Shown here: piece by piece, positions 42,301 to 46,136 of the stretch
Position numbering within the stretch: the stretch's first letter is position 1
Layout: each line of letters begins with the position of its first letter
Assembly (NCBI GenBank): GCA_963796685.1
Contig: CAWCMR010000011.1
Location: forward strand, 32,001 to 96,000
Reading direction: 5' to 3'
DNA: 64,000 nucleotides
Origin: an uncultured delta proteobacterium
GTDB taxonomy: Bacteria; Myxococcota_A; Polyangia; Fen-1088
Program-made: the position numbers and the translations under genes
Notes under the pieces: generated by a model
What the model was told of the DNA's origin: nothing
The model's database searches: none
Seen by the model: only the letters and a program-made list of their open reading frames with translations

Positions 42301-42673
42301 CGTAAAACTCCGGTTGTACGTTCATATCAGCAAGTGGTGTGCCACTAGCCGCGTGGACGATCTCTGGTCGCCTTCCCAAGAATTCTCGGTCTTGCCGCTG
42401 CGTCAGCACCTCAGAATCCTGAGGCTTCCAGGGGAGCCTCACGAGTATTTGCACTTCACCAAGGTCAGTCGATTCCGTGCCCGTGGCTTGGGAGCCAGAG
42501 CGGGCACGAAATCGACATAGACGCATTTTGGTGCCGCGTGGTCGCTGCTAGAGCACCGAACGGGTTGAAAGTGCCGAGAATTCAAGAAGTTGCTACGCAC
42601 GTGCACGCTCCGATCCCCTCGCCCCGCGCAGCGGGGAGAGGGCTAGGGTGAGCATCTGTGTTCCTAGTCAAGG

Positions 42674-43624
42674 TCAAATCTCCGTGGTTTGCCAGCGCGA
42701 GTTAGAGCGCAACATGGCGTTGAGGATGGTGAGCAGCTTGTGCATACAGGCGACGATGGCGACCTTCTTGAGCTTTCCTGCGGCGACTAGCCGAGCGTGG
42801 AATCTGGCGATGACTGGGTTGAAGCGTATGGCAGCTAGGGTGGCCATGTAGAGGACGTTGCGGACTTCGGTGCGGCCGCCCCAGATGATGCGGCGGCCGC
42901 GCAGGGTGCCGCTGTCCCGGTTGAGTGGAGCAACACCGATGAGGGCTGCGATCTGCTTGCGGTTGAGGGTTCCAGTCTCAGGGGCATGGGACAGGATGGT
43001 GCGAGAGAGGACGGGGCCAGCTCCTGGAACGCTTTGGATGATGTCGTCCTTGGCTTTCCAGACCGAGGAATTGCCGATGGCCGTGTCGATGTCGTTGTCC
43101 ACCTCGTCGAGCTGCTTTTCGAGGTAGGAGATGGTCCTGCGGATGGCCCTCTGCACGCGCTTGGAGGGAGGGTCAGCGCTGAGACGGTTTTTCTCGGCAG
43201 TGATCATGTCGACCACCTGCCTGCGCCTGGCGAGAAGGGCGGCAAGCTCCTGGGTCTCTGCGTCGACAGGCGGGCGGACGGGTGGCCGTATTCGTTCGGC
43301 GAAAAGAGCGATCATGGCGGCGTCCAGGGCATCGGTCTTCGCGAGACAGCCGTTGGCCTTGGCGAAGTCGCGAACGCGTCTGGGGTTGACGACGACAGCG
43401 GGCAGGTTGGCAGCGAGGAGCGCCGCAAGCACGCGTCGTTCGAGTCCACCGGTGGCCTCAAGAACGATGAGGGTGACGTTCAGGGCGGCCAACTCTTTGC
43501 AAAGAGCGCGCACCGTGTTGTCTTGATTGGGGGTGGACCAGGCTCTTTTGGCCGGCAAGACATGGACGTCGAGCGTGGCCTTGGAGACGTCGATACCTAC
43601 GAATGTGTCAGCTGTTGGTGTCAC
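42674..43624 (-). CDS. IS110 recombinase/transposase
   Basis: DEDD motif: GIDVSK, LEATG, KTDALDA; C-terminal RDSG serine loop; GTG start after AAGGAG. Confidence 0.95.
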
Positions 43625-43629
43625 GGGCT

Positions 43630-43848
43630 CCTTTCGCGAAGGACTTCTGCTCTTGGTATGCCCAGCCTTGCGGAGTATGCGGGCTCGAGGCCCTCTCATC
43701 TGTTCGGGCTGCTTGTGAAAGTCGACACGACGACCCTCGCTCACCCACGGTCTTTGTGACCTGAGGGGCATCGGTCTGTCGTGCCGTTGAATCTCGTCGT
43801 GCTCCTTCGCCTTTGGGGGCGAGCGTAGCCCAGCTTTGCTGGGCGAAG
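43630..43848 (-). ncRNA. Bridge RNA (target- and donor-binding loops); 5' part continues at 45924-45970
   Basis: LTG GCCCCTCA and RTG GGGTGAG match the target; LDG ACAGATG and RDG ATAC match the donor. Confidence 0.8.
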
Positions 43849-45923
43849 GTGCGTCCGGCATGGACGCAGAACAAGAGGTGAAGCCATGAAATAGCCAAGT
43901 CCTCTGGGGACCCTGACGGAGGGAACCTCCCACCTACGAGACAAGGGCGCCGGTCTGGAGCACCAGGCCAGACGGGCCGCAAGGCCCGTCTCCCGCGAGG
44001 AGGTGTCTGGTGGAAGTCTATGGTGCAGCGCCGAACCGAACGAAAGTGAAGCGCCGTAAGGCGTGGGTACCGCTGGGCAAGCTGGCCTTCGGCGGCAAAG
44101 CCCAATATTCGTCGGGCGGCCCGCGTAGTGGCGACGGAGTCGGTGCGAAGTTCTGCGTTCTTACCCGGAGAGACCTCTTGGCCTCCGCGGCGAGGAATCG
44201 CAAGCGGAATTCATCGAGAACGAAAGGACGAGATGAAGAAGGGACAAGAGGAGTCGGATGGTCGCGTAATACCGGAAGGCCGGCGAAAGCCGGTTCCAAC
44301 CGCCAGAAGGCGGGGAGGGAAGGCGACCACGGCCAGCAAAGAGGCAAGGCAGCTCGGACTGTTTCCCGAGACAGCCGACAACCCGAAAGGGACCACCGCC
44401 CAAGCGGATCCGGGCCAACCCGTGCCTGCGCGGAGCGAGGTGCCGAAGTCGGGGAACGAGGAAGAGAGGACCTTGCCGCCCATGACGATGGAGGAGGTAG
44501 CGAGCGAAGGAAACCTGAAAAGAGCGTTCGAGCAAGTGAAGGCCAACAAAGGCGCACCTGGACCGGACCGGCAAAGCGTGGGGGAAGTGGCGAAGGGGTT
44601 GGGGACGCTGATACCGGCGCTGTCGCGGTCGCTGCTCGACGGGACATACCGAGTCGGAGACATCCGGCGGGTATGGATACCGAAGAGCGGTGACGGGCGG
44701 CGGGGCCTTGGCATACCGAACGTGGTGGACCGCGTGGTTCAGCAGGCCGTGCACCAAGTGCTCGGTCCGCATTATGAGCCGACGTTTCACCCGTCGAGCC
44801 ACGGTTTCCGACCTGGGCGCAGCTGTCACACGGCCATCGCCGAGGCCAAGCAGTATCTGGAGGAAGGGTACGAATGGGTGGTCGACCTCGACCTGGAAAA
44901 GTTCTTTGACCGGGTCCACTGGCAACGGCTGGTGGCGCGGCTAGAACAGAGGGTTAAGGACCGGCGGCTCATCGAGCTCATCTGGCAGATGCTGAAAGCC
45001 AAGGTGGTGATGCCCGACGGAGTGGTGGTGGCGACGGAAGAAGGAGTGCCACAAGGTGGTCCGCTTTCGCCGTTACTGAGCAATATCGTGCTGGACGAGC
45101 TCGACCGCGAGCTTGCCCAACGCGGTCACCGCTTCGTGCGCTATGCGGACGACTGCAACATCTACGTCGGAAGCGAGCGCTCGGGTCAGCGTGTGATGGC
45201 CAGCGTGGTCAAGTTCATCGAAGGCCGGATGCGGTTGAAGGTGAACTTGGCCAAGAGCGCGGTGGCCCGACCGGAAGAGCGGCACTTTCTGGGATTCCGG
45301 CTGCGGCGCGAGCCGCTGACGGGGGAAGCGGAGGTGCTGCTGTCGGCGCGGAGCAAAAGCCGCATTGACGAGAAGGTCCGAGAGCTGACGCCGCGAAACC
45401 TTGGGCAGTCCCTCAAGGGCTGCATCAAACAGGTCAACGCGTATTTGCTCGGATGGATCGGCTTCTTCTGTATCTGCACGGCCGCGGAAGAGCGGACGCT
45501 GCAGGCACTCGACGCACACATCAGGCGGCGGCTGCGAGCGATAGTGCTACGGCACTGGAAACGCAGACGCTTCATCGCACGACACCTCATCAGCCTGGGG
45601 GTGAGACCGAAAACCGCGTGGCAAGGGGTCTACAAGGGGCATCGCTCCTGGTGGGCGCTGAGCCACACATCGGTAGTTGAACGAGGACTGCGCAACGCAT
45701 ATTTTGCCGAACGCGGGCTTGTCAGCCTGGCCGAGCGGTGGAAGGACCATCACGCCTTGGACTTCATGGACCCGGCCCTGGAGCCAGGATAGCTGCGGGC
45801 AGCAATGCCGGCGCTGGACTACGGGTCGCTCCCGAACGCCAGCGTCCCGAAGAGCCGGATGTGAGGCCCACAAGTCCGGTTCTGTGAGAGCTGGGGGAGG
45901 GTAACCTCCCCTGGCTACTCGAC
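43849..45923 (+). mobile_element. Group IIC intron inserted antisense in the IS110 non-coding end
   Basis: 5' GTGCGTCCGGCATGGACG lies 4 nt after hairpin GCCCAGC-TTT-GCTGGGC; short domain V GAGCCGGATGTGAGGCCCACAAGTCCGGTTC; domain VI ends CTCGAC. Confidence 0.88.
44482..45792 (+). CDS. ltrA: Group II intron reverse transcriptase/maturase, class C type (start could be 44233)
   Basis: NKGAPG.D, LGIP.V.DR, WVVDLDLEKFFD, PQGGPLSPLL, FVRYADDCNIYV. Confidence 0.95.
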   Translation: MTMEEVASEGNLKRAFEQVKANKGAPGPDRQSVGEVAKGLGTLIPALSRSLLDGTYRVGDIRRVWIPKSGDGRRGLGIPNVVDRVVQQAVHQVLGPHYEPTFHPSSHGFRPGRSCHTAIAEAKQYLEEGYEWVVDLDLEKFFDRVHWQRLVARLEQRVKDRRLIELIWQMLKAKVVMPDGVVVATEEGVPQGGPLSPLLSNIVLDELDRELAQRGHRFVRYADDCNIYVGSERSGQRVMASVVKFIEGRMRLKVNLAKSAVARPEERHFLGFRLRREPLTGEAEVLLSARSKSRIDEKVRELTPRNLGQSLKGCIKQVNAYLLGWIGFFCICTAAEERTLQALDAHIRRRLRAIVLRHWKRRRFIARHLISLGVRPKTAWQGVYKGHRSWWALSHTSVVERGLRNAYFAERGLVSLAERWKDHHALDFMDPALEPG

Positions 45924-46009
45924 CGAGGGGGGACCGGGGGACTGCGAGCGAGAGCGAGCCAGTCCCCCGTAAGATACAAGGGGCCAGCGCACTCTCTCGC
46001 ATGGCCGAA

Positions 46010-46064
46010 CCCCTCACCCGACGCGCTTCGCGCGTCGACCTCTCCCCGCTGCGCGGGGCGAGGT
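46010..46064. repeat. REP-like palindrome
   Basis: CCCTCACCCGACGCGCTTCGCGCGTCGACCTCTCCCCGCTGCGCGGGGCGAGG. Confidence 0.75.
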
Positions 46065-46136
46065 GAATCTTCCGAGTACCTCGCAAGCTCTCGATTCTGC
46101 ACAGCATTCAACCCGTTCGGTGCTCTAGGGTGTGAC

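Follow-up and report, generated by a model that had tools for sequence, protein, structure and literature searches.

A group II intron inside an IS110-family element inside a short inverted-repeat element: a probable series of three insertions at one deltaproteobacterial locus

Group IIC introns are defined by insertion after DNA stem-loops such as terminators and attC sites, with no homing site of 20-35 bp, and bacterial group II introns often lie amid other mobile DNAs (PMC4424553). In Pseudomonas putida KT2440 the repetitive extragenic palindromes (REPs) harbour 2 of 9 group II intron copies and all copies (7/7) of ISPpu9 and ISPpu10 (PMC1525189, Table 1, 2006), and REP targeting by ISPpu9 of P. 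putida has been studied (PMC12288879). Two preprints of 2026 treat half-match recombination and IS110 loci that are expanded or have partly been excised (10.64898/2026.08.14.744561 and 10.64898/2026.08.31.748434). The locus described here lies in a stretch of 64,000 nucleotides (C11:32001-96000, called the window) of the genome of an uncultured deltaproteobacterium (G000), an assembly of 7.31 Mb in 26 contigs with 64.6% G+C. At 42548-46128 of the window three elements are nested with base-exact joints, at the coordinates given by an initial annotation of the sequence: a miniature inverted-repeat transposable element (MITE, 42548-46128) contains an IS110-family insertion sequence (IS, 42653-45980), which in turn contains a group II intron (43849-45923).

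The most probable history of the locus, with a probability of roughly 0.88, is that of three successive insertions by three unrelated mobile elements, each into non-coding DNA of its predecessor. A 253-bp non-autonomous element with terminal inverted repeats (TIRs), the MITE, would have settled between two host open reading frames (ORFs). The 1253-bp IS would then have entered the central palindrome of the MITE in its left arm, at GGGTG-AG-GGGC, directed by a bridge RNA from its own 281-nt left end. Last, a retromobile IIC-type intron would have entered by reverse splicing, on the strand that lies opposite the IS genes, 4 nt past a hairpin called SL2 and between nt 57 and 58 of the IS left end. 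Because uninterrupted copies occur elsewhere in the genome, it can be seen that excision of the intron restores the IS exactly and that excision of the IS restores a normal MITE. The statement of the initial annotation that removal of each layer restores the previous one therefore holds for the intron in the IS and for the IS in the MITE; it is not supported for a supposed REP layer, which is counted here as make-up of the MITE. Elements of these three kinds and the sites that they prefer were known previously, and the locus gives no new mechanism. What is new is a left-end bridge RNA with covariation of its guides, an intron that parts the predicted promoter and the stem-loop SL1 from the guide loops, and a second, apparently independent occupation of an IS left end. 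Among the papers listed by searches of the literature on group II introns together with IS110 or bridge RNA, no title or abstract dealt with an intron in a bridge-RNA gene, which does not prove that there is none.

The IS and its target comprise the following parts, in window coordinates.

42653-45980, minus strand: IS110-family element, 1253 bp without the intron; six uninterrupted copies at 100% identity
42646-42652, no strand: left half of the IS target, GGGTGAG, with the core AG as its last two letters; 45981-45984 holds the right half, GGGC
42653-42673, minus strand: the 21-nt right end of the IS, where TTGACT is the likely -35 box of a circle-junction promoter (by eye)
42674-43624, minus strand: recombinase gene, 316 amino acids, with DEDD_Tnp_IS110 and Transposase_20 domains
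43625-43848, minus strand: IS stretch between the recombinase gene and the intron
45924-45980, minus strand: nt 1-57 of the IS left end, with the likely -10 box (TATCTT) and the 5' stem-loop SL1

BLAST searches of this genome gave six uninterrupted copies of the IS, 100% identical to the window copy, in which positions 1-1196 run directly into positions 1197-1253; these supply the empty form of the junction 43848/45924. The protein matches PF01548 (2.7e-23) and PF02371 (9.6e-17), that is, the DEDD and Tnp20 domains, and scores 212.7 bits against NF033542 (NCBIfam, IS110 family RNA-guided transposase; cut-off 140). The only proteins of solved structure matched with phmmer were ISCro4 (2.9e-31) and IS621 (1.2e-26, residues 8-308). 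Domains, family model and structural matches thus agree with the earlier identification as an IS110 bridge recombinase. The ends of the element, CATCTG... and ...ATACAAG, are dissimilar and form no terminal inverted repeats. All seven copies are flanked by GGGTGAG on one side and GGG(C/T) on the other, with AG at both joints, and they lie in at least two different repeat families; read along the recombinase gene, the AG core is CT. In uninterrupted form the 11-mer target is present at 121 sites in the genome, where about 18 would be expected. The specificity of the IS for this word (7 of 7 copies), which is found in REP-like repeats, is borne out. The wider idea that each element uses the palindromes of its host as a landing site applies to the intron, which follows hairpins; for the IS it is loosely put, as this element would read sequence through RNA guides and not the palindrome itself. 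Relatives of the IS with 98-99% identity were found in the congeners G001 (one full copy) and G002 (seven), none of them interrupted among the 30 related genomes searched. Close relatives of the recombinase are from uncultured deltaproteobacterial or Polyangia assemblies, and Xanthomonas genomes also carry relatives.

Read in its own sense the IS has a left end of 281 nt and a right end of 21 nt. Two guide words could be located in the left end.

43762-43769, minus strand: left target guide GCCCCTCA (IS orientation), nt 137-144, the sense of left flank plus core
43740-43746, minus strand: right target guide GGGTGAG (IS orientation), nt 160-166, complementary to the right flank with the core

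The two words bracket a small stem-loop within a long stem. The left one contains GCCCCT, the sense of the left flank with the core CT, and its DNA doubles as a pseudo-target of the IS. Covariation was examined in the elements of G000, G009, G015 and G010, with mismatched pairs of element and flank as control. The homologs in G009, G015 and G010 are 65-70% identical to the window IS and have other flanks, and their guide words are altered to fit. The longest word in common between guide and own flank is 6-7 nt for the left target guide and 7 nt for the right target guide in the four homologs, compared with 2-5 nt against the flanks of the other elements, except where flanks coincide. The donor side changes in the same manner: the left donor guide, ACAGATG, has become ACAGCTT in G010, where the right end has changed with it, and the right donor guide goes from CAAG to CCAG alongside a change of the left end from CTTG to CTGG. 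Compensatory changes among the homologs are also found in the basal stems of the RNA. By this covariation the IS left end encodes a predicted bridge RNA with target and donor guides. Across the joined right and left ends TTGACT, a spacer of 17 nt and TATCTT were read by eye, and TTGA(C/G) is kept in the four homologs; a circle-junction promoter across the joined IS ends is predicted.

A weak match to the Rfam family sX15, a small RNA of Xanthomonadaceae, was noted at 43645-43796 on the plus strand (29.4 bits against a gathering threshold of 55, E 0.071). It overlaps both guide loops on the strand opposite the bridge RNA, and sX15 might stem from a relative of this IS, Xanthomonas being a carrier of recombinase relatives.

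The intron and the hairpin that precedes it were delimited as follows.

43849-45923, plus strand: group II intron, assigned to IIC type, 2075 nt (RF02001 79.7 bits, RF00029 46.6 bits)
44233-45792, plus strand: intron reverse transcriptase (RT)/maturase with RVT_1 and GIIM domains; the frame is open from 44128 and the start may be ATG 44484
43828-43844, no strand: hairpin GCCCAGC-TTT-GCTGGGC, SL2, 4 nt before the intron

The Rfam matches cover domains 1-4 at 43989-44159 (gathering threshold 32) and domains 5-6 at 45850-45923 (gathering threshold 40), both on the plus strand. The match to domains 1-4 ends at 44159, about 311 nt from the intron's 5' end, and domain I would be small. The intron begins with GTGCG and finishes with CGAC, like its 10 other full copies in the genome (the AC end is found in 11 of 11), which were obtained with BLAST at 99.76-100% identity together with one fragment of 146 nt. 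The RT/maturase is intact with YADD present, scores 368 bits against TIGR04416 and has RVT_1 and GIIM as its only domains at E<=0.001, without an endonuclease domain. The intron is antisense to the transposase ORF (42674-43624, minus strand), and the initial annotation was right to call it a complete antisense intron that splits the IS left end, given the ribozyme domains, the intact RT/maturase and the exact ends. Its closest solved relatives are the GsI-IIC RT (5e-109), the E.r. intron RT (3.4e-86) and two RT fragments (about 1e-68, the weaker at 3.3e-68), the last three of which are taken here to be IIC enzymes. Solved IIC enzymes gave 234-369 bits, compared with 134 bits (9e-38) for LtrA (IIA) and 82 bits (4.7e-22) for entry 6me0, which is presumably TeI4h (IIB). 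The intron would by this belong to class IIC, as assigned by best match and not by tree. Ahead of ATG 44484 the intron frame stays open over some 119 codons (44128-44483, plus strand), which would give a basic N-terminal extension, and the match to solved IIC RTs starts near residue 86.

A hairpin ends 0-10 nt upstream of the intron in all 10 readable 5' flanks, which otherwise differ, in agreement with the rule, stated in the initial annotation, that IIC introns insert after hairpins. G is invariably the last exon base before the intron, and in 8 of 11 copies the 3' flank opens with C. The hairpins are REP-like palindromes or a structural hairpin of the IS, and none has a terminator T-run (by eye). 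One copy follows a REP palindrome like that of the MITE in the window, and two lie in a repeat family that is also targeted by the IS, 28 nt from the IS target. No match to the intron above 82% identity was found in the 30 relatives. Tandem pairs of introns occur at C8:379444-383672 and C25:481403-485921 in this genome, 79 and 368 bp apart; the pair on C8 lies in a duplicated unit with identical upstream flanks of 60 nt.

Within the IS the intron sits between nt 57 and 58 of the left end, past SL1 (nt 12-46) and 4 nt from SL2 (nt 62-78), upstream of both guide loops and of the recombinase gene. Of the homologs, that of G010 has an identical SL2, that of G015 one with three compensatory pairs, and that of G009 none; this conservation and compensation indicate a selected structure of the IS lineage. 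Being antisense, the intron would not be spliceable from IS transcripts. It would separate the predicted promoter and SL1 from the guide loops and the recombinase gene, and the interrupted copy is for that reason probably unable to make its own bridge RNA. Both ends of this copy are intact, and in principle it could serve as a substrate in trans for the six intact copies.

The SL2 hairpin is found at 12 places in the genome, namely in seven IS copies and five relics, and at two of these an intron is present. The second intron-occupied left end is at C25:1543315-1545528, where the IS part is 96.4% identical over 83 positions and the intron 99.9%. A diverged IS part with a near-identical intron points to an independent second insertion. 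The idea that SL2 is a recurrent landing site for IIC introns, where independent antisense hits would permanently uncouple the promoter from the guides and leave a trans-dependent element, is put forward as a tentative and rather unlikely one. If it is true, the guide-RNA gene would, together with the relics at the pseudo-target described below, be a weak point of bridge-recombinase elements, exposed to other parasites as well as to the recombinase of the element itself.

Solo left-end relics lie at C25:1109419-1109562, C8:212939-213083, C25:234099-234238, C25:1543315-1543396 and C1:32343-32446 of this genome. In two of the five there is an exact joint between GGGTGAG of the repeat and IS position 1114 (GGGCATCGG...), in one more 3 nt are absent, and one is diverged. 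The breakpoint corresponds to window position 43765/43766, a look-alike of the target within the DNA of the left target guide, and this suggests that the recombinase may sometimes use its own guide-coding DNA as a site. In G002 one locus (L101, C21:13200-14900) has a full IS copy followed by a second left-end piece (IS 1112-1253) with AG common to both; another (L102, C14:1-900) has a mid-IS part at the contig end, a left end and then a second left-end piece, again IS 1112-1253 with the AG in common. Insertion of an IS into the pseudo-target of a relic or of a further copy would give this layout. Shorter pieces, about 64-89 nt long (IS 1160-1249, with SL1 and SL2), are found singly and in a row of four tandem units at L104 (G012:C25:80100-80650), L106, L107, L108 and L110. 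The species with these pieces are of the same genus and have no full IS match; the pieces may be derived from the IS or have been acquired by it.

The outermost element has the following parts.

42548-42569, no strand: left TIR, starting with CTAG, 22 nt, perfect reverse complement of 46107-46128
42548-42652, no strand: left arm of the MITE, element positions 1-105, contiguous with the right arm in 11 further full copies
42617-42641, no strand: left copy of a REP-like palindrome with 11-nt arms and one mismatch, read from the sequence
45981-46128, no strand: right arm of the MITE, element positions 106-253, including the REP-like palindrome 46039-46063 and the right TIR 46107-46128

The perfect 22-bp TIRs with CTAG at their outer ends are present at 42548-42569 and 46107-46128 as first annotated, and joining 42548-42652 to 45981-46128 gives a MITE of 253 bp. 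With BLAST 11 other copies in the genome align to it end to end, gapless at the joint, with 93.3-97.2% identity over 252-253 nt, so that the junction 42652/45981 also has its uninterrupted counterpart. All 12 copies begin with CTAG and 11 of the 12 finish with it; outside the element nothing is conserved or duplicated. Genome-wide there are 24 inverted pairs of the MITE end (at most 5 mismatches per end, 100-4000 bp apart): four of 163 bp, one of 239 bp, six of 248-250 bp, eleven of 252-253 bp, one of 657 bp and one of 3581 bp, the last being the locus in the window. The families with these ends have their first 22-26 nt in common, with different interiors in elements of 163-657 bp. The element is thus short and non-coding, has TIRs and occurs in many copies (12 of this family and 11 other elements with the same ends), as a MITE does. 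Its body is a near-perfect palindrome composed of REP-like repeats and folds as a single long hairpin (-164.3 kcal/mol). Upstream of one ORF (41708-42526, minus strand) it lies 21 bp from the start codon, and it lies 8 bp past the stop codon of another (46137-48416, minus strand).

The copy of the MITE at C25:1868242 is missing at the orthologous site in the congener G002, where a single GTAG is found, and this empty site is evidence of mobility. The one GTAG empty site would fit a duplication of TA, TAG or CTAG. A second comparison of orthologous sites was blurred by other repeats, and no paralogous empty sites for the 24 TIR elements were found in the genome itself. CTAG targets with duplication of TA are linked to IS630. 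The transposase of IS630 or IS5 type with the same TIRs, for which a search had been proposed, was not found in this genome, which is 88.6% complete: no same-end inverted pair longer than 657 bp is present except the window locus, DDE_3 and DDE_Tnp_4 gave no match and DDE_Tnp_1_2 gave one weak match below threshold. Elements with DDE_Tnp_1 were rejected as partner of the MITE, their termini being other words. One such IS of 1465 bp, at C25:1420162-1421652 of the same genome, stops 3 nt short of a MITE-type end, CTAGAGCACC; its left terminus begins CTAGGAGCAATGCC and has only a loose likeness to the MITE end.

The two 25-nt REP-like palindromes, at 42617-42641 and 46039-46063, are inverted to each other. 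The left arm of the central palindrome of the MITE, GGGTGAGGGG...CCCCTCACCC, is split by the IS. Two palindromes inside the TIRs and a third split at a duplicated AG had been noticed earlier and are all seen. Of the two REP arm words the genome holds 175 and 232 occurrences, where about 18 and 32 would be expected, and words of the REP-like part are 5-10 times over-represented. In being a short extragenic palindrome of high copy number the repeat resembles a REP. No match to a RAYT gene (Y1 transposase, PF01797) was found in the 88.6% complete genome, with control genomes giving matches, and the term REP therefore applies in a loose sense only. The 155-bp core of the MITE (element positions 45-199) is also found in tandem arrays without TIRs, with a period of 180 bp. 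Tandem arrays of REP-containing units lie at C11:98637-101805, just past the end of the window, and at C25:1059665-1060878, with periods of 180 bp and 75 bp, the 75-bp array being made of a unit related to the 155-bp core. These arrays are satellites. For the 75-bp repeats a reading as CRISPR was ruled out, the "spacers" being identical. One 180-bp array carries an intact IS copy (C11:100106-101358).

Several points weigh against the history of three successive insertions. The assembly has a completeness of 88.6% and a contamination of 6.48%. For the MITE in the window no orthologous empty site was found in the five congeners searched, where the flanks are not conserved, so that the junction 42547/46129 did not give the empty allele that had been looked for. 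No contig from four public runs bridges any of the occupied junctions, as the contigs stop at repeat borders. The intron-less joint 43848>45924 is present in X1, X3 and X6, and 42650>45979 in X3 with a side of 22 nt; these contigs say nothing either way on the stack. An exact 30-nt word across the joint of IS and intron gave no match in metagenome_contigs and genome_contigs, which possibly lack the records of this genome. The promoter, the start of transcription and the loss of the bridge RNA have been read from sequence only. Finally, the order of events is unproven, and the IS could have brought the intron along when it entered the MITE.

Such a joint arrival, of a 3328-bp intron-bearing IS mobilized in trans, is improbable. 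In its favour, the donor words and the two ends of the IS are undamaged, and the IS part shows 100% identity with copies that look active; the bridge RNA of IS621 acts in trans on a donor that needs only about 22 bp round the core (PMC11208160), and expanded IS110 loci with cargo are described in one of the preprints (10.64898/2026.08.14.744561). There is, however, one composite of IS and intron in the genome and none in 30 relatives, and the intron occupies the same hairpin in an immobile relic, so insertion in place suffices. The suggestion that the whole 3.6-kb unit may move also gained no support from these genomes: MITE with IS, IS with intron and the full stack each occur once in this genome and are absent from the 30 relatives.

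A decidedly improbable alternative is the four-level nest first proposed, in which a REP unit was inserted separately into an older, smaller MITE. The other MITE families, with nothing but their ends in common, and the arrays in which the 155-bp core exists alone would fit such a unit. The core is nevertheless present in 12 of 12 MITE copies, a version without REP was not found in this genome, no transposase of RAYT type was found there and the arrays might just as well descend from the core of the MITE. The REP-like palindromes belong to the composition of the MITE with no demonstrated insertion of their own, and the number of insertion events at the locus is three, not four. An assembly artefact, by which multi-copy repeats were falsely joined in a metagenome-assembled genome, could draw on the near-identity of the copies of all three elements, an intron copy at a contig start (C11:2-2076), the contamination and the unbridged joints, and is highly improbable in view of the base-exact joints at sites that each element favours elsewhere, the continuation of the contig into unique DNA on either side, the same joint of intron and left end on a diverged background at C25:1543315-1545528, and the resolution of 2-kb repeats of 99.9% identity inside contigs, which implies long reads.

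The locus is a natural and internally controlled test of the logic of bridge RNAs, in which flanks and guides change together in four diverged elements. It is also a natural case in which one RNA-based mobile element would disable the guide-RNA gene of another, with intact sister copies for comparison, so that supply of bridge RNA in cis or in trans becomes testable in the native host lineage. The relics suggest that guide-coding DNA may serve as a recombination site, which bears on off-target and half-match activity and on the engineering of these enzymes. For annotation, 3.3 kb of "genes" are here nested parasites in a 253-bp repeat between two host ORFs.

In comparison with known systems, the outer element resembles MITEs with CTAG or TA ends of the IS630-Tc1 or IS5 type in being short and non-coding, with perfect TIRs, a hairpin fold, many copies and CTAG at both ends; it differs in that no partner transposase was found in its assembly. 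The IS has in common with IS621/ISCro4 and ISPpu9/ISPpu10 a recombinase with DEDD and Tnp20 domains, ends without inverted repeats and a duplicated core dinucleotide. Its core, CT in IS sense, is that of IS621, and ISPpu9 is described with AG at both ends. The left-end RNA, the target and donor loops that include the core, the layout of the target loop and the promoter predicted across the joined ends are as described for IS621 (PMC11208160), in which the left end is 191 bp; the window IS has 281 nt, the additional SL2 lying after the 5' stem-loop and before the target loop. Its target word, GCCC-CT-CACCC, is another difference from these systems. Insertion into REP-type repeats is shared with ISPpu9 and ISPpu10 (PMC1525189, PMC12288879), and the orphan non-coding modules described for ssr9 of ISPpu9 are similar to the relics of the window IS elsewhere in the genome. 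The intron is like GsI-IIC and the IIC introns that target attC sites or terminators in its lack of an endonuclease domain, compact ribozyme, near-identical copies and insertion after hairpins; unlike at their sites, the hairpins here are REP-like or structural parts of an IS, without the T-run of a terminator. Unlike the REP-associated introns of KT2440, the intron in the window lies inside the predicted guide-RNA gene of an IS, in antisense orientation.

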